A DNA stretch of 64,000 nucleotides. It comes from a virus. Numbering within the stretch: position 1 is the stretch's first letter; every line of letters begins with the position of its first letter. Of the stretch, positions 1,050 to 60,611 are shown in pieces. Position numbers and translations under genes: made by a program. The notes beneath the pieces were generated by a model. It searched no databases. It saw nothing but the letters and a program-made list of their open reading frames with translations, and had not been told where the DNA came from. The stretch is from the UHGV virus genome UHGV-0038496. One strand, written 5' to 3'.

Positions 1050-1971
1050 CACATGTTCAAGGAGTTCGTTACGCTCCCCCGCACCTTTACGTGCAAAGCC
1101 ACAAGATTTCTCCTGTGGGTCGGACTATCTCACGTTCCTAGATCAGCCACAGGAACCCTCCCATTTCGACCGCACTTGCTGGCCTACTCTACTCGCTTCT
1201 TCACATCAACCTGTGTTGACGCTATGCTTTCGATAGTCTCTGAACGCGACTACCAGGTGTAGTTTTTAGAGATGTGTTTCCACTGCCTTCTTTGCTTTAT
1301 GGCTCTGACTGTTCCATAAGGATACCCAAGATCCCTAATCTCGCACTGTCTCATACCACTTTGCAACAGTTCACAAATCTCTATCACCTCAGCTTCTGTT
1401 AGCACAGCGTTAGCGTTATACTCGCCTACTGGCCTAACTCTGAGGTCATTATCATAAGCGTGTTTGATATTTTTGCCTTGAGTTGTCCACTCCAGATTCC
1501 AGTATGCATTGTTGTACTTATTCCCATCTTTATGGTTCACATAGGTGAATTTTTCAGGATCAGGATTCGGTACAAAGCATTCAGCAACCAAGCGGTGAAC
1601 ACCTTTTGTACACTGCTTCCCATCAATGAACATGATTACGCAAAGGTAACCTCTACCGTTATCAAAACTGAACATTGTTGTGTGATCACGTTTAGATAAA
1701 GGTATTGTTCCGTCATCAAACACAGTGTATCCATGATAATCAAATGATCTAGCCATTTTAACTACACCTCTTTAGTCTTCGCTGCGGGTTGGCATATTGA
1801 GTTTTACCACATTTTGGCATAAAAGTCAACTTAGCGTTCCCGTCAATTAAAGAGGTTATTCGACATAGATTACTCTATGAAGCCACAATGATGTTTATGG
1901 TAATAGATGATTCTTCTGACACCTAGGTCATACCAAGTTTTATTATCTATTTTCAAGGTCATCAGGTTGCG
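1050..1971 (-). mobile_element. group I intron (about 0.92 kb) in the DNA polymerase gene, carrying an HNH ORF
   Basis: Conserved core elements read on the minus strand in canonical order: P-like AATTGACGGGAACGC (rc of 1834-1848), Q-like AACCCGCAGC (rc of 1781-1790), R-like GTTCAGAGACTATCG (rc of 1231-1245), S-like GAGATAGTCCGAC (rc of 1119-1131). Upstream exon ends in U (CAT), intron ends in G (GTG). Boundaries are predicted, not folded. Confidence 0.7.
1250..1756 (-). CDS. intron-encoded HNH homing endonuclease
   Basis: 168 aa with HNH_3-type motif VHRLVAECF...VNHKDGNKYNN..NLEW.T...N.KHA and a C-terminal HTH-like tail; RBS GAGGTG upstream; lies between the Q and R elements of the intron. 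Confidence 0.8.
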   Translation of the reverse strand: MARSFDYHGYTVFDDGTIPLSKRDHTTMFSFDNGRGYLCVIMFIDGKQCTKGVHRLVAECFVPNPDPEKFTYVNHKDGNKYNNAYWNLEWTTQGKNIKHAYDNDLRVRPVGEYNANAVLTEAEVIEICELLQSGMRQCEIRDLGYPYGTVRAIKQRRQWKHISKNYTW

Positions 1972-4329
1972 ATGAACCAATAAGCCTACCAGATCACACA
2001 ATGAAGCACCACCATTCTGCTGATATGCATTCAGCAAGGAGTGTTTAGAGCGTGTCCAGATGGCATGACCATCGAAAGCATAGATAAATTTCTTACCTGT
2101 CGCCTCCCAGAATTTCTCAAGTGCCTCTTTACGACCTTTCAGGCCGAAGTTGGTATCCCAGAATGCGTCAATTACTTGCTGACCAACCTCTGGCACAACG
2201 TCAAGCATATCCGCTACTTTATCCTTTTGAGCACCATACATCACGCCATAAGTGATTGGCTTACCATCACCACGGGAAACCTCTCTGCCCACAACTTTAG
2301 AGTAGGCTTTGGCGTTCAAAGCATGTGCGTCCCCTTCGCTTATGATCCTGTAATACGCCCCGTTGTCGAAATCGTAAGCACCCCATGCACCTATCAGCTG
2401 TTCAAGGTTGGAACCATCAACACCCAACTGATACTTACCTGGAGCAGGTTTCCAGAGACTACGCATCTCTTTACCCAGCACAACCTTTGGTGAAGGTTTA
2501 GGCTGGTTGGCACATATTTTATGTTTCTGTCGTCCGGTAGCAGTCAAACCGGAGCTTTCTGCTGGTAAGCGGTGATCGATCTGCAATCTCGGATGATTCA
2601 ACAATCCAGTATCAACCTTATCCTCTTTGATTGGGTCGAGTACTGACCTACGGTTACGCAATGACAGCCAGAACACAATGTCTTTTGCCATCTCTCCTTG
2701 CAATCTTGCCAGATTAGGACACAAATGCCCGAAGCTATCTTTCAGCTGTGGGGATGTTGGTAGCCCTCTGGCTTTACGCCGGAACTTGGCGAACACCTCC
2801 TGTTCAACCCTGGGGGAGTTCTTACGACTCATGAACTTCGCTTCTGAAATTTTGAATCGCGCATCCCTGTTCAGTTCACGAATGATCAGGGTACGATACT
2901 CGGATGTTTCCAGTTCATCCATGTACTCCCTTACTTTAGCATCAATTTCAGCATCCGGCAACTGTTTTTTGTGGTAGTCACGGGTTAAATCTTTCGTTCT
3001 CCACATTGTTGGTTGCCAGCCTACAGAGATCAGATAACGCTTGATATCCATCTGGTTATTCATTCTCATGGGCACCATGCAATCAGGCATTTTCTTATCC
3101 TGCAAATCCTTAATTGCCTGCTGCATCAAATCATCCGGCAGAGGTTTAGGTGCTTCCTCTGACCGTGCTGCCCTCAGAAAGTCTGCCTGTTTTTCAGGAT
3201 CAGTGCAACCTCTTTCCTCACACCATTTAACACCTGTAGCACTAACACTCCCATCTTTGTTGAAAGCCCGTTTAGGTGCAGGTTTGAAGTCAAAAGCTGC
3301 TTCATTAACCGGATACCCAAGTTTGTTCTTCAACCAGCTGTAGCCGTGTGAAGAGATACTACCATCTGTATTGAACGGTTTCTGTGGGAACTTAGGCTTC
3401 TGGGCCTCTGAAATTTCTTTCAGTGGCAGCTGTGGTTCCACACGATCAGCGATCTCTTTCATCATGTCATCGCATTTCTGACGTAAAGCTATCGCCCCAT
3501 CAATATCAAAGTAAACACCTTGTCTTGCTTGTAAGCCCATCAAGAAGTGCTGGAGCATACCACGACGCAGAGCATACTTCCAAGTGATTTGTTTGAATCC
3601 GCTGGGTTTCTCTTTGTCTGGATCATACATAAAGTTTTGCATGTCAGATTTGCCGTAGAATGTCCCTTTGGACTCGGCGATCAGTTCGTCCCAGAGCAAT
3701 TCCTGAATGATAACGTCTTCCCATACACGGTCTACGTATTTCCAGAGTGGAAGATTGCGCCAGTCATCAATCTTAACTTTCTGGTTGCCAAGTGCATAGC
3801 CCCAAGCCATCAACCCATGTGGACCTACAGCTTGACTTTTCTTAGTTACCGGATTGAATACCGCCTCTGGACAACCTTTCGGTAACGGGCGATCAGGCCA
3901 CAATATACGACTCATCGGCAAAGTATCAAACAGGTTAACCCTGTGACCGTTGATGGTCCCCATGCAATCTTTATCTTCGAACAGGTCGAAATGAATGCCT
4001 GATAATTTTTCAAATAGGATAAAATCGTAGTCAAAACAGTTGTGACCCACTAAAGCGGTTGGCGACCAATCAGAATGTCCTGTCAGCCACTCTTCCATAT
4101 ACCCAAAGTCAGCAACCCGCACCTGACAGTTTTTGTAAACTGTTTGTTTATTGAGAGCGAATTGTTTCGCTGTTTCTACATCTTCCTCGGAGTAATGAGT
4201 CCTGTCGTTTAGCGGCAGGAATAGTATGAAGTTGTTTTTATGATGTTGTTTGTACAATGTGCAATGATAGTAGAGGTCTTTTTCATCAAGCAACCCACTA
4301 CTTTCTGCGTCAAAAGCCCACAATGCCAT
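1972..4329 (-). CDS. DNA polymerase, family A (T7-like), exon 1 with 3'-5' exonuclease domain
   Basis: N-terminal exo motifs FDAESSGL and HNCFDYD; polymerase motif A VDGSNLEQLIGAW (T7 VDASGLELR); motif B R..GK.ITYGVMYG; the track ORF runs 34 codons into the intron to a stop at 1870 with no HDE motif; RBS AAGGAG before the ATG at 4329. Confidence 0.85.
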
Positions 4330-10057: not shown

Positions 10058-11341
10058 TTAGAAGAAGATCTCTTCTATTACGTTGCCATCACGGTCAACT
10101 ACATACTCATTCGGCATATCTTCCGTGCGTTTAACAGGAGCCGTGAGTATTTCGAAGCGGCAGCAACGGCATTTAGCAAAGTCGTAGTCATACGGCACAC
10201 TAACCACATCTGCTGGGTCAACAGCCACTTTAGTTAACACACCGTATCCTTTGGCATACTCAGCGCTTGCACAGTGCAGGCCGTGAGAGCAAGCCACCTT
10301 TGGGTTATCCTCTACAAAGTTACGAGGCATTGAGATAAAGCAGCCTTCGTATTGTGGGACTTTACCAGAATGGTAGTCTACACAGCTTCCGTCAGCCTTC
10401 TGAGTTACACCACGGAAACATTCTATACGACCATCAGGTAGAATGTCAATATCATTTGCCTGCATAAAGTTGTAGAGCATGTCTACAGACTTAGCAGACG
10501 GGTTACGAAGCAGACGGACCAGGAACTTGATGTAGCGTTCATCCAGAGTGCCTTCTGCCGCATCCTTTTCAATCCGTTTGGCGATAGTGGAAGTCAGGTG
10601 CACACCATAGTAGAAGAGTTCACCATCACGCATTACGAGGTGATTTTCCAGGTACACCACTTCAATACTTTCCTCTTCCTCTTTCTCCGCGTCCTTAATG
10701 AGCTGAATTGCACCATCGAAGTCGTTAGCACCAACTCTTGCAAACACTTCTTTGTAGAGTTCTTCGTTGTCCTCATCAGCTGTTACAGTGTAAGTCTCTT
10801 CACGAGTGATAATCTGGATCATGCTGCCGAAGATAACCACGACAGGTTCACCATCTGGCACTTTTGGCACCAGGTCATCAGCATTGTAAATCGCTTCATC
10901 ACTGGATGGTTCAACCTCTAAAGGTGAGGCATCACCGTAGTAAGTCGCTGCGTGTTCTGCTGGGGTGTAAACAAGGTTTTTAGGACTTGCATTTTCCCAG
11001 TGCAATACCCCTACTACATTGCCAGGGTATTTTACCACCCAACGCGGAACAGTCGCATAAGGGCCACGGTCGATGAGTGTGGAACCTTCCATGCAGTTTT
11101 CTTTGAACTTACGAGCCTCTCCACGAGAAGCAAACTCTGCATAGTAGTATTCCACTTCCAAAAATTCATTATCAATGTCGCAATTTTTCGGGGAATGTAC
11201 GTCTATCCACCATTCGCCATCGAGAAGATACGGTTTACCCACAGGAAAGCCACGGCTTTCATATTTTGCTTTTGCTACACGAGCATCGTTACGAGTTTTG
11301 TAAGTACGCACGTATACAGCTACGGTTGAACAGTCTGACAT
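10058..11341 (-). CDS. rIIB-like protein (tentative)
   Basis: 427-aa ORF immediately downstream of, and start/stop-overlapping with, the rIIA-like gene; assignment is by position only. Confidence 0.35.
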   Translation of the reverse strand: MSDCSTVAVYVRTYKTRNDARVAKAKYESRGFPVGKPYLLDGEWWIDVHSPKNCDIDNEFLEVEYYYAEFASRGEARKFKENCMEGSTLIDRGPYATVPRWVVKYPGNVVGVLHWENASPKNLVYTPAEHAATYYGDASPLEVEPSSDEAIYNADDLVPKVPDGEPVVVIFGSMIQIITREETYTVTADEDNEELYKEVFARVGANDFDGAIQLIKDAEKEEEESIEVVYLENHLVMRDGELFYYGVHLTSTIAKRIEKDAAEGTLDERYIKFLVRLLRNPSAKSVDMLYNFMQANDIDILPDGRIECFRGVTQKADGSCVDYHSGKVPQYEGCFISMPRNFVEDNPKVACSHGLHCASAEYAKGYGVLTKVAVDPADVVSVPYDYDFAKCRCCRFEILTAPVKRTEDMPNEYVVDRDGNVIEEIFF

Positions 11342-13353
11342 TATTCAGTCTCCTTCTTAGCTTTCATTAATTCAATATATTCAACAACTTCTGGTTTATC
11401 CCAGTAATCCCCCTGGATGCGTTTCAGCAACGGGTAGCGTTTGTATACACCATCCATGTAGCGACGAGCACATTTCACATGAAGGTTCACAAGATGATCT
11501 GCTCTGTCAGCCAGATCCCTATACTTCCACGAGTAGCATCCCATCCACATACGGACCTTATACTTGTTTTCTTTTACTTCTGGGTCAATGCACATTTTCA
11601 CACCGAGTTTTCCCAGTTGCATTTTATATTTTGTGTAACCTGTTGTGTTTGCAGCTTTCATCAAAAGCCAGTTCCAGGCATCCTGTTCCAGAACAGGTTT
11701 TGCATCAACCTCTGTGATAATTCTACAATCTTCTGTCACCCATGTCAAGCGACTTTCAGCAACCATGTAAACATCTTCATCCTGTGGGATACCAAAGGCT
11801 TCACGGAAGACCACCGGATCCTGTTGGTAGATGTTATTGTTTTCACCCAACCAACTGCGGCCTCTCTGGATATCACCATCATACGGGATGCAGTATTTTA
11901 TATCTTTAAAATCCTGCTTACTGATGCGTTCGCGGCAGAACCAACCGTGTTCATCCATCTTTTTGACATAATAGCCCGGTTGATACGTGCTCGCCTGGCA
12001 TTGGTCTTTTGGTGGCTTAGGTAGCTCAGACAGTAGATACAGCACGTCACTGTAGAACGGATCGTTCACATATTTAGCCAGCTCCTCTGACAGGTACGGG
12101 TCTTCCACATAGTAGACGTTGCGGCCTGTCTCATTAGCCAGATAGTTACATTTAATCCGGTTGAACTTACCGTTTGCGTCATTCAGTACCAGCTTACGGC
12201 CTGCTGAAAACTCTGAAGGGCCGTACATATCTCGTTTCAGAGAGTTAGCACCAATCCGAGTACCACCTACGAACACAGGCAACTCATTGATGACTGGGAC
12301 AGTACGACCTTGCATAATGGCTTTCCATTTAGCAGTCATGAACTTCCAGCCCACCAGACGCGAGAAGAAACCACCAGACTCTTTAATGATACGACGGGCT
12401 TCAACCCCAGAAGTGGCCTTATTCAGCAGCACTTCAATCTCTTCACCACGTTTACTGATACCTTCATCCACAAAGGCTTTCAGCTGTTCGAGGAACCCAC
12501 CATCATCATCACCCTCAATCGTCCATTCACGGCCAAGGTTGATATCGCAATCGCCAATCGGAATCTCTACCACCAGGCGCGGATAATCTACCAGAGATTC
12601 AAGATACTCTGAACGATAAGGTTGGTGACCCATCACAACACGGCTTTCCATAGAGCAAGTATTGCCGTGGTAGATGTACAGAGTCCATCCACCTTTTTTG
12701 TATGTGTAGTCAACGTTGCTTCTAAATTGCTCCAGCATCCGTGTGGTGATCGGATCCGACACCTCGAACGGAAACTTAGCATAGTTCAGGCATGAAGCTA
12801 TCGCATGGCGATACGCAGACACATCCCTTTTGCTCACAGGGAACCGGATTGTGATGCCGTTATGCTGCGTAGAAGGCTCGCTACGCGTCTTAGTGACTTT
12901 CGGTATACCTTTGTCCATAAAGACAAGATATTCGCTTCTTGTGCCGTTATAGACGCTTATAACGTTAAAGGCTTCTACCTTGCTCAGAGGTGCTTTTGAG
13001 CCAATGCCTTTGGCACCTACCAGCTCATTACTCTGGCGCTTAGTGGAGTCGCCCAACGTCATAAAAATTGTGCGTACAGTCTCTTCAGACATGCCGAGGC
13101 CTTCATCCTGCACAGAGAAGTAAGGCTCAAGGTCGGTTGGTGTATGGATCTTGATAGGCACATCTTTACGACCTGCTTCAACATGAGCATCCACAGCATT
13201 GAAGATAGGCTCACGACAGGAAGCGAGTAAAGGATCTTTGTAAATACCTTTGATAATCAGGCCAAACGTCTCCGCATTCAGCGCGATTGTCCCTGTGGTA
13301 ACTTCACTCTTACCGAGAATGTTTGCTTCTTTATGGTCACTTTTAATAATCAT
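11341..13353 (-). CDS. rIIA-like protein with N-terminal GHKL-type ATPase fold
   Basis: N-terminal MIIKSD..., then GHKL boxes NAVDAH, DEGLGM, GAKGIGSKA; 670 aa, similar in size to T4 rIIA (about 725 aa, from memory). Confidence 0.55.
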   Translation of the reverse strand: MIIKSDHKEANILGKSEVTTGTIALNAETFGLIIKGIYKDPLLASCREPIFNAVDAHVEAGRKDVPIKIHTPTDLEPYFSVQDEGLGMSEETVRTIFMTLGDSTKRQSNELVGAKGIGSKAPLSKVEAFNVISVYNGTRSEYLVFMDKGIPKVTKTRSEPSTQHNGITIRFPVSKRDVSAYRHAIASCLNYAKFPFEVSDPITTRMLEQFRSNVDYTYKKGGWTLYIYHGNTCSMESRVVMGHQPYRSEYLESLVDYPRLVVEIPIGDCDINLGREWTIEGDDDGGFLEQLKAFVDEGISKRGEEIEVLLNKATSGVEARRIIKESGGFFSRLVGWKFMTAKWKAIMQGRTVPVINELPVFVGGTRIGANSLKRDMYGPSEFSAGRKLVLNDANGKFNRIKCNYLANETGRNVYYVEDPYLSEELAKYVNDPFYSDVLYLLSELPKPPKDQCQASTYQPGYYVKKMDEHGWFCRERISKQDFKDIKYCIPYDGDIQRGRSWLGENNNIYQQDPVVFREAFGIPQDEDVYMVAESRLTWVTEDCRIITEVDAKPVLEQDAWNWLLMKAANTTGYTKYKMQLGKLGVKMCIDPEVKENKYKVRMWMGCYSWKYRDLADRADHLVNLHVKCARRYMDGVYKRYPLLKRIQGDYWDKPEVVEYIELMKAKKETE

Positions 13354-13375: not shown

Positions 13376-13394
13376 GCCCCTCGGTAAGAGGGGC
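13376..13394 (-). other. GC-rich stem-loop without a U-tract
   Basis: GCCCCTC-GGTAA-GAGGGGC hairpin between the 13407..13775 gene and the rIIA-like start. Confidence 0.3.
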
Positions 13395-13406: not shown

Positions 13407-13775
13407 TTAATTGTCGTGGAGGAGTTCATCTTCCACTTCCCTGTAAATCTCCACGCATTCATCTTGATAGAAGAATGTCTTATCCTTAAGTTGCAGACCG
13501 AAGAGTTCAGCACTATCTTTGTGGCAAGCTCTCACCATCTCTGCAATGTCATAACGTAGCAGATCGTCATTTTCAAAGAAACCTGCTTTATCCTTAACGT
13601 AGATGAAGAAATACTCACTATCAGAACAAGTTAACATCAACTCATCCCAGATTTCATCACCTTCACGATCCTGAACTGTGATAACCCGTGTTGATCTGCA
13701 ATGATACTCTTCCTCTGGATGGTCTGTCAATACCACCAGGAAATTACCACGGCGTTTCTTACCTAATGCAGCCAT
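13407..13775 (-). CDS. hypothetical protein
   Basis: 122-aa ORF. Confidence 0.45.
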   Translation of the reverse strand: MAALGKKRRGNFLVVLTDHPEEEYHCRSTRVITVQDREGDEIWDELMLTCSDSEYFFIYVKDKAGFFENDDLLRYDIAEMVRACHKDSAELFGLQLKDKTFFYQDECVEIYREVEDELLHDN

Positions 13776-13785
13776 TGTGCACTCC

Positions 13786-14979
13786 TTAAGCCTTAGCTAA
13801 CAAGTCACGGAACTCTTCCCCAAACTGTTTGACGATAGTCATCAGGTTAGGGTATGCTTTAATCAGTTTAGCCATGATTTTCTCACGACCATGCTCTTTG
13901 TTCACCAGAATAGCATTGCCAAGTGCATTCGGGCTAATCATCGCTTTGAACACAGAGAATACGAAGTCTCTGTTGTCATTCTGGAAGTTGCTCCATAAAT
14001 ATTCCAGGAAGTTCGCAGCACTGCTAACCACTTCGTCATCATCGACTTCAATGTTAGCCATCATGTTGCGTAAGCCAATACAACCTTCTGAACCCAGAAT
14101 CCAGATGAGGTCTGGAGATTTCTGGCCTTTGAACTCTTTGACTGCCCCAGCAAAGATATCCCCAATCTCTGGCAGATTGCGTTTCTTCGTGTGGTAAGTC
14201 ATAATCTCCAGCATCATCGTGTGACCAATCGTCCCCTGTAACAGGACACGGGCTTCAGCTTCTGAAACCAGACGGCGATCAAGGTCCCACAGAATATCCG
14301 AAGCAGTTACCCATGAACGAGGTGTGGCGAATGCAGGACAGTTGCAGTCTGCCATTGCTTCGTAGTTCTCAATAGATGACGGCTGGCGTTTCAAATAACC
14401 GATCACAGAAGAATGCACACCTTGTGGGAATGCATAGTCTTCCAGGAAGACGTTGGCATCTGGGATAACTTCTACAATAGTTAAACGGTTTGCCAGAGGT
14501 GCTTCCAATACAGACAGCACTGCACCATCACCAGAACGGTTACCTGCACCTACAAACACCGCACCTTTCGGGAATTTGTAGCAACCGCATTTGTGGTCCA
14601 ACATGATCTGCATGGCTACTTTCTGGAGAAAATTATCTGCATGGTTCATTTCATCCAGCAGAATAATACCTTCCCAGTCTGGATCAGTAGGCCAGAAGCT
14701 CGGTGTGGCAAACACAGTGCGAGTTGTGCCATCTTCCTCTGTTACCGGAACAGGCAGGCCAGACAGGTCTGTTGGGTCTTTATCTGACAAACGAACATCG
14801 ATCAAGTTATCTTCCCGTTCTCCAAATAGTTTATCGGCAGTTTGCTTGATGACCTGGCTCTTACCAACACCAGGAGAACCCAGTATAAATAAAGATTTGC
14901 CGTGACGCTGGGCAAACTTGATCATAGCAGGCAACTCACGAACTGTAATCTGCCCACTTTCGAAAATGTTTCTTGACAT
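13786..14979 (-). CDS. AAA+ ATPase (MoxR/AAA_5-like)
   Basis: Walker A GSPGVGKSQ, Walker B ILLDEMNHA; 397 aa. Confidence 0.75.
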   Translation of the reverse strand: MSRNIFESGQITVRELPAMIKFAQRHGKSLFILGSPGVGKSQVIKQTADKLFGEREDNLIDVRLSDKDPTDLSGLPVPVTEEDGTTRTVFATPSFWPTDPDWEGIILLDEMNHADNFLQKVAMQIMLDHKCGCYKFPKGAVFVGAGNRSGDGAVLSVLEAPLANRLTIVEVIPDANVFLEDYAFPQGVHSSVIGYLKRQPSSIENYEAMADCNCPAFATPRSWVTASDILWDLDRRLVSEAEARVLLQGTIGHTMMLEIMTYHTKKRNLPEIGDIFAGAVKEFKGQKSPDLIWILGSEGCIGLRNMMANIEVDDDEVVSSAANFLEYLWSNFQNDNRDFVFSVFKAMISPNALGNAILVNKEHGREKIMAKLIKAYPNLMTIVKQFGEEFRDLLAKA

Positions 14980-52979: not shown

Positions 52980-54088
52980 TTAGTTAGTAGGACTTGCAAA
53001 CAGGTTAATATCTTTCCAATTTTCCCATTCAAATCTTGCATCCAGCATTTCTTCGAACTGAGCAGCGTCAAACTCGATTGTAATTTTACCCTCACCAACT
53101 TCCAGAGGAATTGGAGGAATTTCGAAGGATGGTAACGGATCCAAAGGTGTACTTGGAGTTGGATTAGCTCTGTAGGTAATCGGGTTAAGCATACGGTAAT
53201 CCAGGCCAAGGAAAGATGAAATGCCGTTAACACCATCGACAAGCCACTGCGGATGTTTGGTCACGTCAGTTTCCTGGTGGTAGTTTTGCATCCAATCATC
53301 CAACATACCAGCACCTTCGTACCCCATGTAGCCCAGAGCTAATGGTCCTTTCCATTTCCACAGTCCACCAAGTAACCGTGCAAACAATCCTTTCTTAGCC
53401 ATGGCTGCTGCACCACCCGCAGCTGCACCACCTGCGGCGGCACCACCGAGAGCACCTGCAACACCTCCGGCAGCTTTAATCATACCCAGGGTTGCGGCAA
53501 CAGCTTTGACGATTCTCAGCAATTTCCATACGGCGTTAACAACAACTAAGATGGAGAAAGCATAGCCTACCCATTTAGCTTTGCTGAATGTTTCATCAAC
53601 AGTGTCACTTGTATCTTTGACTTCTTTTTTCAGCAGACCAAAGTGGTCTTTGACTTGCAACCACCAGATACGGATACTGACAATCGTGTTGTTCAATTCA
53701 CCAACAATGTCGTTCAGACCCTGGATAAATCCAGATACAAACTCACCAGCCTGCATGATCATTGGGGTGAATGTTTCTCCTGTGCGGATCAGGGTGTAAT
53801 AAAACTCGGTGAGTTCATCTGACCATGTGGTGAACAGTTTTTGTTTAGTCAATTCGATGAAAGTTTTCAAACGGTTTTCAGCCAGAACGTTAGATTTCTG
53901 CATACGTTCATAACCAGCAGCTGACGCTTCGTTCATGTACTTAGCAACGTATTTCATCATTTTGGCTGTTTTGACCTGGCCTTTCTGCATCATGTCCATG
54001 AATTGTTCCATAGACAGCTCAGACAGGTTGAAAGCCTCTTTTGTTGCTTTAATGAACGGCTCGTAAGCACCTGGCATTGCTTCAGCTA
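52980..54088 (-). CDS. tail tape measure protein, exon 2
   Basis: Track ORF is TTG-initiated with an in-frame stop just upstream at 54108-54110; contains a Gly/Ala-rich hydrophobic segment (GGVAGALGGAAAGGAAAGGAAAMAKKG) typical of tape measure proteins; predicted 3' splice site after G at 54089. Confidence 0.6.
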
Positions 54089-54917
54089 CCAATGTCCAGA
54101 CAGTTCGCTACGCTGTCCCGGTGTGCTAAGACACCCGCCACACATTTCTGTGTGGAGCAGACTATATCTTCTCTGGATAACCAGAGCCAACCATTTCAGA
54201 GGCGCTTGCCTCTTACACCGCTACACTCATCACGGTTAGTCGTTGAGCACATAACTTATAAATCTTTCAGCAGTTTAGACCATGCTTTCTTAGTCTTGAT
54301 TCGAACAATTGCTGATCTGCAAGCACCAAATTCTTCCATCAAATCTGTTGTATTCTCAAACCGCCTGTTATAAATTTCGATAACCTCTTCTGCTGTGAGC
54401 TTATGATTGGCATTTGACTCACCAGAGGCATCATTCAGGCCATTTGCAAAAGCATGTTTCTGATTGCCAGATCGAGTAACATACTCCAGATTATCTTTAT
54501 GGTTGTTTGCTTTATTACCGTCCTTATGGTTAACTTCCATCCCAGGTTGTGGAGGTTCACCAAGGAAAGTAAGGGCAACTATTCTGTGAACAAGATACAA
54601 CACACATTTGCCGTTTACCCGAAAGTAAACGCGTTTGTAACCATTGTGTATTGTCTGCTCAGTCAACTGCTTCCGTGTGTTTCTTCTTGTAGAGAATATT
54701 GCACCGTCCTCTCTACAGAAGTACCCATCGTGACCAGGAACTGGTCGGATTTCTAAGTTACTTCGCTGCGGATTATCCATTGTTACATCCTCCAAACTTT
54801 TTACCATACCCCGAGTAGTTACTTCGGGCCATAAACATGTTACCACATTTATTTGGTATTTGGAAGGCTTTAGGAGCTTCCCGCAATTAGGTTGGTTTTA
54901 TAACAGCTAGTATGTCA
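54089..54917 (-). mobile_element. group I intron (about 0.83 kb) in the tape measure gene, carrying an HNH ORF
   Basis: Read on the minus strand: P-like AATTGCGGGAAGC (rc of 54876-54888), Q AATCCGCAGC (rc of 54765-54774), R-like TCAACGACTAA (rc of 54236-54246), S AAGATATAGTCT (rc of 54159-54170). Candidate P1: exon AACAGU pairs with intron GCUGUU, with U-G at the splice site. Intron 3' end GGACAUUGG is homologous to the polymerase intron 3' end GAACAUGUG. Boundaries predicted only. Confidence 0.65.
54256..54780 (-). CDS. intron-encoded HNH homing endonuclease (paralogue of the 1250..1756 product)
   Basis: HNH_3 motif VHRIVALTF...VNHKDGNKANNHKDNLEYVT...NQKHA; shared LTAEEVIEI block; start taken as ATG at 54778-54780 with RBS GGAGGA (track ORF extends upstream to 54846). 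Confidence 0.8.
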   Translation of the reverse strand: MDNPQRSNLEIRPVPGHDGYFCREDGAIFSTRRNTRKQLTEQTIHNGYKRVYFRVNGKCVLYLVHRIVALTFLGEPPQPGMEVNHKDGNKANNHKDNLEYVTRSGNQKHAFANGLNDASGESNANHKLTAEEVIEIYNRRFENTTDLMEEFGACRSAIVRIKTKKAWSKLLKDL

Positions 54918-57008: not shown

Positions 57009-57026
57009 AAGCCTCCGAAGAGGCTT
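57009..57026 (-). terminator. rho-independent terminator overlapping the nuclease stop codon
   Basis: AAGCCTC-CGAA-GAGGCTT hairpin followed on the minus strand by TTTCTGTTTG. Confidence 0.55.
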
Positions 57027-58563
57027 ATAACCACTTAGCTCTCCATACCCATTTAATCTTACCACTATCCCACAACCGGATAGCCCCAACCAAATCTTCT
57101 ATCTCCCGCTCTGTACGAGGATCAATAGACTTATCTGGGTTGAAGTCTACATCAGATCTGCCAATCTCCTCCAGACGTTTAGGAATCAATCGACGTTGCC
57201 AGTGTGGTTTCGGACGCAAACCATTAGCAGGGTGGAATACTCTGTAGTCAGGTTTGCCATACGTTTCAGCAACAAATCCCAACACTTCATAAACCCCACC
57301 AGCGAAGTAGTCATTCATACTGAATGAACTAACCTCTTCTGGATTATTCTCCCTGATAAACGTTTTAAACAGTCTAGATGCCCCACCACGAACAGAACAG
57401 CTTGATGCAAATCTTGATAACTCCCATGTTGCCTTAGTCGTACCGTTAGCTCTGGCCTGACCTCTCGTAGTTTTACCGTAGCCGAAGCTCATGATTGCTA
57501 CAATTTCACCTTCTTTCGTTTTCAGAGCCAGATTGATAGGGTTAGGAGAATGGCCCTGCGGGTGGTAAGCGTCGTAAAACTCTTTGCACTCTATTGATTT
57601 TAGATGCACAACTTCACACTCCCTGGCATTTACTTTACGCTCACCATTACACCCCAAAGCATGAGCCAGCAACTGGCTGAACACTTTCTGGTTGTTATCC
57701 CAATCATAGTCCGTGATCTGGATCAGGCGAATACCTTTCTCTTTACAGGCTAACCACTTGTTGTAATGGTAGTCTTTAGACTTATGATTATCACCATGCC
57801 AGAAGACACCGTTAACTTCAATCGCCACACGTTTTGATGGGACAAAGATATCTAACTCTTTGCCATCATCCAAGATAGTGCGGTTAGACTGCTCCGCGTC
57901 TGGACAGATAGATTTTACAAAGTCAAAGACAGATCCTTCCACTTTAGAAGTCAATTTTGCACAATGCCTGCACCCATGACCTCTGTGAATGTGTTCTTTC
58001 ACAGGCTGTTGGAACTCTGATCCACATTTTGTGCATTCAATATTGAGAATGCCTTTCTTCCTTTCATCATAAAACATACTTTTGTAAACGTATTTATCTT
58101 TGTGGACCTCTTTAGCTTGTTCCACAACTTCTTCAAAAGAGTTTCTGCTTTTTCTACCACGAGTCATGTTAGCACAACGAGGGCAGCCCTGTCCTCTCAA
58201 ATGTTTGCTAGGTTTTTGTGAGAACACGCCGTGGTCAGGGCAAATAATGTTCACATTTGTCACTCTATCTTTATACACAACCTCAGAGTAATCGTAACGA
58301 TCACCATGTTTTTCTTTGGCCTTTTCGATAAATTCTTCCCTGTTTCCACGTTTACGCTCAAGGTAACATTCTTTGCACCCCTCCCCTTTTCTGTGAGCAT
58401 TCGCTTCTACCGAAAACACGCCATGTTTTTTGCAAATAATGTTAACTTTTTCTCTGCTACCTTTGTACTCAGTTTGACTGTAATCATACATTTCTTCAAA
58501 CTCAGGGTTTTCTTTGAAGACGGCTGTTAGCCATTCTTCTTTTGTATAACCTTTTCCAGCCAT
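57025..58563 (-). CDS. putative homing-type endonuclease: three tandem zinc-ribbon-like repeats plus Vsr-like PD-(D/E)xK nuclease domain
   Basis: Three roughly 45-aa repeats (Y.YS...Y......NIICP.HGVF......H..G.GC..C); nuclease-like block DIFVPSKRVAIEVNGVFWHGDNH resembling the FVDGCFWHGH core of Vsr (from memory); start set at ATG 58561-58563 (MAGKGYTKEEW...) with RBS AGGAG. Confidence 0.65.
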   Translation of the reverse strand: MAGKGYTKEEWLTAVFKENPEFEEMYDYSQTEYKGSREKVNIICKKHGVFSVEANAHRKGEGCKECYLERKRGNREEFIEKAKEKHGDRYDYSEVVYKDRVTNVNIICPDHGVFSQKPSKHLRGQGCPRCANMTRGRKSRNSFEEVVEQAKEVHKDKYVYKSMFYDERKKGILNIECTKCGSEFQQPVKEHIHRGHGCRHCAKLTSKVEGSVFDFVKSICPDAEQSNRTILDDGKELDIFVPSKRVAIEVNGVFWHGDNHKSKDYHYNKWLACKEKGIRLIQITDYDWDNNQKVFSQLLAHALGCNGERKVNARECEVVHLKSIECKEFYDAYHPQGHSPNPINLALKTKEGEIVAIMSFGYGKTTRGQARANGTTKATWELSRFASSCSVRGGASRLFKTFIRENNPEEVSSFSMNDYFAGGVYEVLGFVAETYGKPDYRVFHPANGLRPKPHWQRRLIPKRLEEIGRSDVDFNPDKSIDPRTEREIEDLVGAIRLWDSGKIKWVWRAKWL

Positions 58564-58596
58564 CGAAAAACTCCTAGTAGTTTTAAACACAGGGGA

Positions 58597-58626
58597 ACTA
58601 TACCACAAAACATTAGCTTTTGTCAA
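58597..58626 (-). promoter_or_regulatory. sigma70-like promoter with extended -10 (TTGACA, 18-nt spacer, TGG-TATAGT)
   Basis: Read on the minus strand: TTGACA (rc of 58621-58626), 18 nt, GTGGTATAGT (TATAGT = rc of 58597-58602); about 30 nt upstream of the nuclease RBS. Confidence 0.55.
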
Positions 58627-59153: not shown

Positions 59154-60539
59154 TTACGCAGTCATTGCCTGGGCATTCGTGCTGGTTGTACCAGTTTTAT
59201 CCAGCAATACATTGATGCGGATTTTCACGAAGTGCAGAGCATTGTTGTAAACCATTTCTACTTTAACACCTTCCAGGGTACGAGCAGCCAGCTGGTTAGC
59301 AGGGATGGTAGCACGTTTTGGAACAGTGATAATCGGATCGTAGAATACGCTGTTTTCTTCATCATACCCAGTCAGGATAGCACCGTTACGGATACCAACG
59401 TTGATCGGGTCGTTCATCAGAACAGATTTAATAACAGGCAGGTCGTCATCAGACATTTTCATGCTCATGCCCATGTTGGATCTGCGATGCATGTAGCCAA
59501 ACATAGATTCTTCGGAACGGAATTTGATCCAGTGGGAGAATCTGATTACGTCAGCATATTGGCCTGAAGCGCATTTACCTTCCCAGAAGCAACCAACACC
59601 GTTGATCATTCTGTAGAAGTTCAGGTTGTTGTCCCACAATGCCATTCTCTGACCGACACCCATGTTCGGAGGAGTGATACCTGGCATTTTTTTCAGGTGT
59701 AAGCTGTCACCATAAGACGGGTCATTGGATGCCATTGCACCGATGATACCACCTTCTGGGAAGTCCATGTTAGCACGAGGATCCCACATACCTAAAGTAT
59801 CAAGCTGGAGCTGTTTGAGAGCATAACCAATACCACTTTCTACACCCATTGCATCTTGATCAGCAGTGGAGTAAACGTGAAGTTTGTAGTTAGCTTGTGC
59901 CCATTTTGCAAGAGCTGTGATAGCAGTAACGCTGTGGTCTTCGGAGCACAGGAAATACCAGTTACTGTTTTCATCATTAATGTCATCAACGACTGTCTGA
60001 GGAGTTTCACTGGATTTATTTTCAATTTTGAAATCGCCAGCACCGTAGCCAACGGTAGCACCTTTGATGGTAACTTTACCGGAGTTAGCTTTAGCAGTTA
60101 CACTGGCACCTGACAAGATTTCATCACCAGTAATAGCTGTAGCCAAAGCCTCAGCGATTGTGGAAGCAGCAGTACCACCACCAACTGGAATGACTATGGC
60201 GCGATCATAATTAGGGATTGCTACGTTTACGATAACTTGGGATTCAGCTGGGAATACGCCACCAACAAAGTCAACAACAGTTTCTGTTGCAGCCTGACGA
60301 CCGATGACGATGTATTGCGGCGGGAACTCACCACCGAAAGCGTTAGAAGCGAAGGTGTGAGCAGCACTGCCTGGTGCAAAACCATCGTCAACTAACTGAT
60401 CGAGTTCAGCGTAAACGCGAGCGCGTTCAGTAAAATTATTGTGGATGGCAATAAACAAGGGAGTTTCGAAGCCTACTGTGTCAATCGGCTGTGTACCCAG
60501 GTTTACTTGCACATCGACAACTTTATCATTGTAAGGCAT
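59154..60539 (-). CDS. putative tail sheath protein
   Basis: About 461 aa (track ORF is GTG-initiated at 60566; ATG at 60537-60539 has RBS AAGAGGAAA); size, composition and position upstream of the tube gene. Confidence 0.6.
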   Translation of the reverse strand: MPYNDKVVDVQVNLGTQPIDTVGFETPLFIAIHNNFTERARVYAELDQLVDDGFAPGSAAHTFASNAFGGEFPPQYIVIGRQAATETVVDFVGGVFPAESQVIVNVAIPNYDRAIVIPVGGGTAASTIAEALATAITGDEILSGASVTAKANSGKVTIKGATVGYGAGDFKIENKSSETPQTVVDDINDENSNWYFLCSEDHSVTAITALAKWAQANYKLHVYSTADQDAMGVESGIGYALKQLQLDTLGMWDPRANMDFPEGGIIGAMASNDPSYGDSLHLKKMPGITPPNMGVGQRMALWDNNLNFYRMINGVGCFWEGKCASGQYADVIRFSHWIKFRSEESMFGYMHRRSNMGMSMKMSDDDLPVIKSVLMNDPINVGIRNGAILTGYDEENSVFYDPIITVPKRATIPANQLAARTLEGVKVEMVYNNALHFVKIRINVLLDKTGTTSTNAQAMTA

Positions 60540-60611
60540 TTGTTTCCTCTTCAATATCTTGTGCACAGGATATTAACAAGCAGCATAATCATTACGCTGC
60601 ATGGAGAACGA

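Follow-up and report, generated by a model that had tools for sequence, protein, structure and literature searches.

Do two abutting open reading frames (ORFs) in an uncultivated virus genome form a version of the rII locus known from phage T4, or does a protein with an ATPase fold lie beside an unrelated neighbour? The question is raised by positions 10,058-13,353 of UHGV virus genome UHGV-0038496, of which a stretch of 64,000 nucleotides (nt), hereafter the window, was analysed. An earlier note, made from the sequence alone, had described here a protein of 670 amino acids (aa) that carries the GHKL boxes NAVDAH, DEGLGM and GAKGIGSKA, begins with MIIK and overlaps a downstream ORF of 427 aa, and had likened the two to an rIIA/rIIB pair. 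All of these features are present in the sequence (the boxes begin at aa 52, 83 and 113), and the overlap amounts to a single base between two genes that both lie on the minus strand. The locus is very probably a genuine, divergent rIIA-rIIB module, the reading that best explains the evidence set out below, and its two genes are located as follows.

11341..13353, minus strand: rIIA gene, encoding 670 aa, beginning MIIKSDHKE, with the stop codon TAA at 11341-11343
10058..11341, minus strand: rIIB gene, encoding 427 aa, with the stop codon TAA at 10058-10060

The identity of the larger protein is carried by a profile match along its whole length. Residues 1-667 match positions 1-723 of the 725 in phrog_612 ('RIIA lysis inhibitor'; PHROGs) with an E value (E) of 2.9e-103, and phrog_612 is the best PHROG family of T4 rIIA (NC_000866) as well. 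Residues 192-670, from which the GHKL domain is excluded, match positions 205-723 of the same profile on their own (E 7.5e-20), so the assignment is supported by more than the ATPase fold. When compared directly by BLASTP, the protein aligned with T4 rIIA over residues 1-189 with 27% identity (E 9e-20), and the rIIA identity put forward in the earlier note is thus borne out by both searches. Using tblastn, matches were found in 2,645 phage records for rIIA, the best being rV5-type coliphages (one annotated 'rIIA lysis inhibitor'), and in 2,709 for rIIB; for both proteins, the matched records are widely annotated rIIA/rIIB. The only domain recovered from rIIA in the Pfam scan was the generic GHKL domain PF13589 (residues 50-148, 39.9 bits against a cut-off of 25), which is also recorded on the identical rIIA of European Nucleotide Archive (ENA) contig k141_617802. 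A sequence search of PDB chains with both proteins returned nothing at E up to 1. To our knowledge, no rII structure has been solved.

The 427-aa partner, whose rIIB identity the earlier note had been unable to verify, is unambiguously rIIB. Its residues 153-399 align with residues 66-304 of T4 rIIB by BLASTP (31% identity over 251 aa, E 9e-34), and five PHROG RIIB families (609, 3803, 36818, 2886 and 11221) match it with E values from 5e-55 for phrog_609, which is also the best PHROG family of T4 rIIB, to 4e-22. The family PF26926 (Phage_T4_rIIB) is a precomputed annotation of the identical rIIB on ENA contig k141_617802 (140.7 kilobases, kb), and all 120 of 120 rIIB homologues among the matches listed carry it; our own Pfam scan of the 427-aa protein gave no match, the Pfam copy scanned not containing PF26926. 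A structural comparison led to the same family. The AlphaFold2 (AF2) model, with a predicted local distance difference test score (pLDDT) of 75, gave 31 significant Foldseek matches against BFVD (E 7e-38 to 1e-7), every one of which belongs to the rIIB family. Of the 20 that are named, 18 bear the name 'rIIB' or one of its synonyms ('lysis inhibitor', 'membrane integrity protector' and 'protector from prophage-induced early lysis'), and the other two are a 'Transposase' and the 1,049-aa 'RIIA-RIIB' fusion of phage RB43. The part of the protein shared across the family is the following.

10061..10852, minus strand: conserved rIIB core, aa 164-427

A CHCC zinc site in this core (C351, H356, C391 and C394) was considered as a family-wide feature and rejected, as two of the Cys residues are replaced by Met and Thr in T4.

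The two frames are real genes rather than chance ORFs, given their length and the purifying selection that acts on them. Compared with a metagenomic relative that is 88-95% identical (L005), the ratio of nonsynonymous to synonymous substitution rates (dN/dS) is 0.085 for rIIA and 0.29 for rIIB, indicating purifying selection on both. The TAA of rIIA and the ATG of rIIB share one base to form TAATG, a junction that is identical in L005, and a ribosome-binding site precedes the ATG of rIIB by 8 nt. We infer from this arrangement that translation of rIIA and rIIB may be coupled, in which case their products would be made in coupled amounts.

11339..11343, minus strand: TAATG overlap of the rIIA stop and rIIB start codons, read from the sequence
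11350..11355, minus strand: AAGGAG ribosome-binding site (Shine-Dalgarno) of rIIB, within the 3' end of rIIA, read from the sequence

Plus-strand ORFs inside the interval, such as those at 11479-12024 and 12161-12586, are antisense shadows of rIIA and rIIB. Promoter and terminator scans gave counts no higher than those of shuffled controls, and scans for Rfam families and tRNAs found none in the whole 64-kb window. Between rIIA and the 122-aa ORF upstream of it, a perfect 7-bp GC-rich hairpin (GCCCCTC-TTACC-GAGGGGC) occupies 13376-13394 on the minus strand and has no T-run after it; it is kept in L005 and absent from another relative, L006, and its folding energy is not significant against shuffled sequences (z -1.5).

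The anatomy of rIIA is that of an intact GHKL-plus-transducer ATPase followed by a region specific to rIIA, as listed here.

12784..13275, minus strand: GHKL (Bergerat-fold) ATP-binding domain of rIIA, aa ~27-190
13189..13212, minus strand: GHKL motif I, EPIFNAVD (E48-x3-N52-x2-D55), with E48, N52 and D55 invariant
13183-13200, minus strand: NAVDAH, from aa 52 of rIIA
13090..13107, minus strand: GHKL motif II, DEGLGM (DxGxG), from aa 83, with D83 and G85 invariant
12991..13017, minus strand: GHKL motif III with the ATP-lid glycines, GAKGIGSKA, from aa 113, with G113, G116 and G118 invariant
12499..12768, minus strand: second, transducer-like domain of rIIA, aa ~196-285, from structural alignment
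11344..12495, minus strand: rIIA-specific C-terminal region (helical, α/β, helical), aa 287-670

Invariance was scored across 67 aligned homologues, the most distant of them at ~17% identity, among which the eight residues that bind ATP in the Bergerat fold (E48, N52, D55, D83, G85, G113, G116 and G118) do not vary and neither do Y38, R47, S103, K105, G166, Y246, R275 and E276. The second domain superposes on the transducer domain of gyrase/Hsp90/MutL/MORC-type ATPases (10-17% identity in structural alignments), and no solved relative aligns past about residue 330. It is therefore supported that rIIA shares the architecture of these ATPases with every nucleotide-binding motif intact, and the protein may function as an ATP-operated dimerising clamp, as judged from its domain make-up. 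Resemblance in architecture did not extend to family membership in the scans. NCBIfam models of Hsp90, topoisomerase VI-B, BbrUII-type restriction enzymes and histidine kinases scored the protein at 15-26 bits against cut-offs of 274-550 (Hsp90, 26 against 455; topoisomerase VI-B, 18 against 274; BbrUII, 17.6 against 550), and Toprim, MutL C-terminal and Hsp90 middle or C-terminal domains had no Pfam match in it.

The N-terminal part of rIIB is where the protein departs from T4. Ahead of the conserved core, it is made up of the following two segments.

11009..11326, minus strand: tandem β-α-β-β modules of rIIB, aa 6-51 and 60-111, at the position where T4 rIIB has a helix-turn-helix (HTH)
10853..11011, minus strand: disordered, fast-evolving linker of rIIB, aa 111-163, pLDDT 24-30

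According to the secondary structure of the AF2 model, the modules span ~45 residues each, with module 1 formed by β7-14, α17-29, β38-40 and β43-51 and module 2 by β61-70, α73-83, β88-91 and β101-111. An hhalign comparison relates one module to the other (probability 92%, E 5e-7), and each has its own invariant positions: R17, A20, R21, G31 and W44 in module 1, and F70, R73, E75, A76, R77, F79, D91, R100, W101 and V103 in module 2. No PHROG or Pfam family matches them, and a phmmer search of residues 1-110 against 1.84 billion representatives returned only the protein's own cluster; the divergence of the repeat module is too great for searches that start from one sequence. As a working label, they can be regarded as a probable generic ribonucleoprotein (RNP)/ferredoxin-like repeat. 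Profile searches of residues 1-154 revealed no HTH, whereas residues 7-50 of T4 rIIB give weak but consistent HTH matches. The two-module N-terminus is common to the rIIB proteins of rV5-type, 4MG-, PVP-SE1- and GAP31-type phages. The HTH is thus not a family-wide feature of rIIB, which affects the architecture of the protein and not its membership through the core. The linker is rich in insertions and deletions in the alignments, with a dN/dS of 2.5 against L005 over few sites, and its length varies between close relatives, whose rIIB proteins have 405-427 aa. On a 3.3-kb ENA contig, a 498-aa protein (P0073) joins N-terminal TPR repeats to an rIIB core, which matches the window protein at 66% identity across 48% of the query, so the N-terminus of rIIB looks interchangeable.

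What the pair does can be approached from experiments on its relatives. Knock-downs of rII in T4, MM02, EdH4, SUSP1 and N4, whose modules are <40% identical, were harmless on naive E. coli and lowered plating on RexAB hosts (PMC11879866), and T4 rII insertions were depleted solely when RexAB was present (bioRxiv 10.1101/2025.11.20.689424). In addition, rIIA/B of phage Bas63 has been implicated against QatABCD (PMC11482910), and RIIB of T6 alone activates a bacterial gasdermin system, from which the phage escapes through rIIB loss (bioRxiv 10.1101/2023.05.28.542683). By homology, the pair in the window probably has an anti-exclusion function as well. The rIIA and rIIB products would act together as a complex, in which rIIA would serve as an ATP-driven clamp like other GHKL-plus-transducer ATPases, and the complex would block abortive-infection systems that kill via membrane depolarisation, namely λ RexAB and possibly others such as QatABCD, allowing the phage to complete replication. 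By analogy with T4, MM02, EdH4, SUSP1 and N4, the pair would be dispensable on naive hosts, and, as in T6, its rIIB may also expose the phage to certain defences that sense it (CARD/gasdermin systems).

Several observations weigh against a simple transfer of the T4 picture to this locus. In pairwise comparison, only the first ~200 residues of the 670-aa protein resemble T4 rIIA, the link of the C-terminal part to T4 being made through the PHROG profile, and the anti-exclusion role is drawn from homology only. Because the N-terminus of rIIB differs and has no HTH, functions of T4 rIIB that depend on its HTH are not transferable to the window protein. Transmembrane segments were predicted in neither rIIA nor rIIB (maximum 19-residue Kyte-Doolittle means of 0.9 and 1.24), so the membrane association reported for T4 rII is left unexplained by the sequence. 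Furthermore, no demonstration of an ATP-driven clamp or of an rIIA-rIIB complex was found, for any rII protein, in the literature consulted.

An extension of the same identification, rather unlikely as it stands, would make rIIB a modular adaptor whose conserved C-terminal core works with rIIA and whose N-terminal targeting domain is exchanged by lineage. The N-termini would then be an HTH in T4, RNP/SPOR-like β-α-β-β repeats in rV5/4MG-type phages, TPR repeats in P0073 and rIIA itself in RB43, and the presence of tandem β-α-β-β repeats where T4 has its HTH fits such a view. If it were true, the N-terminus of rIIB would decide which host structure or defence is engaged, the repeats would recognise a ligand other than that of T4 rIIB (nucleic acid, a cell-envelope precursor or a defence protein), and this lineage would have a different anti-defence spectrum.

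Improbable, and to be considered because it accepts the pair as rIIA/rIIB by descent, is the view that its primary role is the regulation of phage DNA transactions or transcription, with protection from Rex as a by-product. Under that proposal, rIIB would be a specific transcription factor, as Iyer et al. (2021) class the orthologues of T4 rIIB (PMC7824862), and rIIA a DNA-clamping GHKL ATPase; the N-terminal HTH of T4 rIIB, the activity of most GHKL-plus-transducer ATPases on DNA or chromatin and the position of the module beside helicase and replication genes in the window phage and its relatives favour it. However, rIIB of the window and of all its rV5-, 4MG- and PVP-SE1-type relatives has β-α-β-β repeats instead of an HTH, and the absence of the HTH from this lineage argues against HTH-mediated DNA binding or transcriptional control as a conserved function of the family. 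The rII knock-downs of five diverse phages cited above (PMC11879866) also caused no defect on hosts that lack Rex.

It is highly improbable that the N-terminal repeats of rIIB are a true peptidoglycan-binding SPOR domain (PF05036) through which the protein acts on or senses the cell wall. The evidence is mixed: a marginal Pfam match was obtained in a relative, whereas the window protein itself has no such match, CutA and generic ferredoxin-like folds score higher, and hhalign comparisons with the SPOR domains of E. coli FtsN, DamX, DedD and RlpA were not significant; moreover, rIIB should be cytoplasmic, as it has no signal peptide or transmembrane segment. Finally, the 670-aa protein is almost certainly not a GHKL enzyme that manipulates DNA (the ATPase subunit of a topoisomerase, a MutL- or MORC-like protein or an Hsp90-like chaperone) with an unrelated 427-aa neighbour, since topoisomerase-, MutL- and Hsp90-type models are not its best matches and remain far below their cut-offs, the structural-alignment identity to such proteins is low, the match to the rIIA profile covers the entire protein and so takes in the C-terminal part outside the GHKL domain, the downstream domains of those enzymes gave no match, and the similarity of the partner to rIIB is clear.

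The rIIA-rIIB module preferred here resides in an uncultivated myovirus of ~140 kb, and the closest cultured relatives of this virus are the rV5-like phages (Vequintavirinae). The earlier note had seen in the locus the rIIA-then-rIIB arrangement of T4-like phages; the gene order stands, and the phage is rV5-like rather than T4-like. The window contains several tail-fibre genes of this myovirus, along with genes for a tail sheath, a family A DNA polymerase and a primase-helicase. A megablast search of the 4.5-kb region against phage genomes gave only four short matches at 73-76%, two of them in rIIA-annotated genes of coliphages isim and naam, so the region has no close cultured relative at the DNA level. 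The same rIIA-rIIB region is present on contig k141_617802 (140,706 bp) of ENA assembly ERZ27287477, with an identical rIIB and the same neighbouring gene sizes. About 65 rIIB protein clusters with 81-96% identity, from contigs of up to ~145 kb, were also recovered, and the relatives found indicate an abundant uncultivated phage lineage.

Related contigs of 126-141 kb share with the window the order of an AAA ATPase (397 aa), a 122-aa ORF, rIIA, rIIB and a Dda/Pif1-type helicase (462 aa). On the same strand, rIIA directly precedes rIIB in the metagenomic relatives L004 and L005 as well, and a 124-aa ORF lies between them in L006. The upstream pair in the window (13407-14979, minus strand) consists of a MoxR-like AAA ATPase of 397 aa (phrog_1297, E 6e-103) and a protein of 122 aa (phrog_12370), and this pair precedes rIIA in L004, L005 and L006. 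In the rV5-like L006 (Logan ERR6997038_58, 1630-3986), a Hydrolase_2 (SleB-like) gene intervenes just upstream of rIIA, and rIIA itself is called as two ORFs, one of 407 aa that holds the GHKL domain and one of 254 aa, perhaps because the gene is split or frameshifted or because the assembly is in error. Elsewhere in the window, a 533-aa HNH/homing-endonuclease gene (57025-58626, minus strand; phrog_559, E 3e-103) lies within the tail genes, with the tail sheath (59154-60566) on one side and the tape-measure region on the other. The only part of a tape-measure profile matched by the ORF at 52980-54092 is the C-terminal half of that profile.

The rII locus is historically famous and widespread, with >2,600 phage records matched here, and one more divergent copy adds little alone. 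It does confirm the GHKL catalytic residues and the rIIB core as invariant parts of the module, and the case for rIIB as a transcription factor is weakened by the finding that the T4 HTH is not conserved. The replacement of that HTH by tandem β-α-β-β repeats is the only mildly novel point, the pair being otherwise ordinary though divergent. In practical terms, identical proteins in public metagenome assemblies that are now labelled hypothetical can be named rIIA and rIIB.

Among named systems, the GHKL ATPases Hsp90/TRAP1, GyrB/ParE/topoisomerase II, MutL and MORC, at the low identities given above and with other downstream domains, resemble rIIA in likely mechanism and not in membership. The T4 pair (rIIA NP_049616, rIIB NP_049889) has the same order of rIIA then rIIB, directly adjacent on one strand, the same MII... 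start of rIIA and the same motifs ExxxNxxD, DxGxG and GxxGxG, and it shares the best PHROG families 612 for rIIA and 609 for rIIB. However, T4 rIIB has 312 aa against the 427 aa of the window protein, with an N-terminal HTH (aa ~10-50) where the latter has two β-α-β-β modules and a disordered linker of ~50 aa; a gap of 11 nt (record coordinates) separates the T4 genes, whereas those of the window overlap by 1 nt; and the neighbours are gene 60/topoisomerase and denB in T4 and an AAA ATPase and a Dda/Pif1 helicase in the window. The closest cultured relatives, rV5-like phages of the genus Vequintavirus (rV5_ev158, V18, phiWec193, isim and naam), are 52-53% identical over 100% of the length of rIIA and 45% identical over 97-99% of rIIB, and they share the two-repeat N-terminus of rIIB and, in phage V18, a Dda-like helicase gene after rIIB. 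The window phage differs from them in belonging to a separate, so far uncultivated lineage of metagenomic contigs of ~128-145 kb. The RIIA-RIIB protein of RB43 (UniProt Q56C47, 1,049 aa) shares the fold of the rIIB core (Foldseek E 3.5e-18) and is one fused polypeptide, whereas the window encodes two polypeptides joined only by TAATG. An RB43-type fusion accounts for the phrog_609 profile (1,055 positions) matching both window proteins, the GHKL part of rIIA at positions 31-188 and rIIB at 819-1046, and this natural fusion supports the view that rIIA and rIIB act together.

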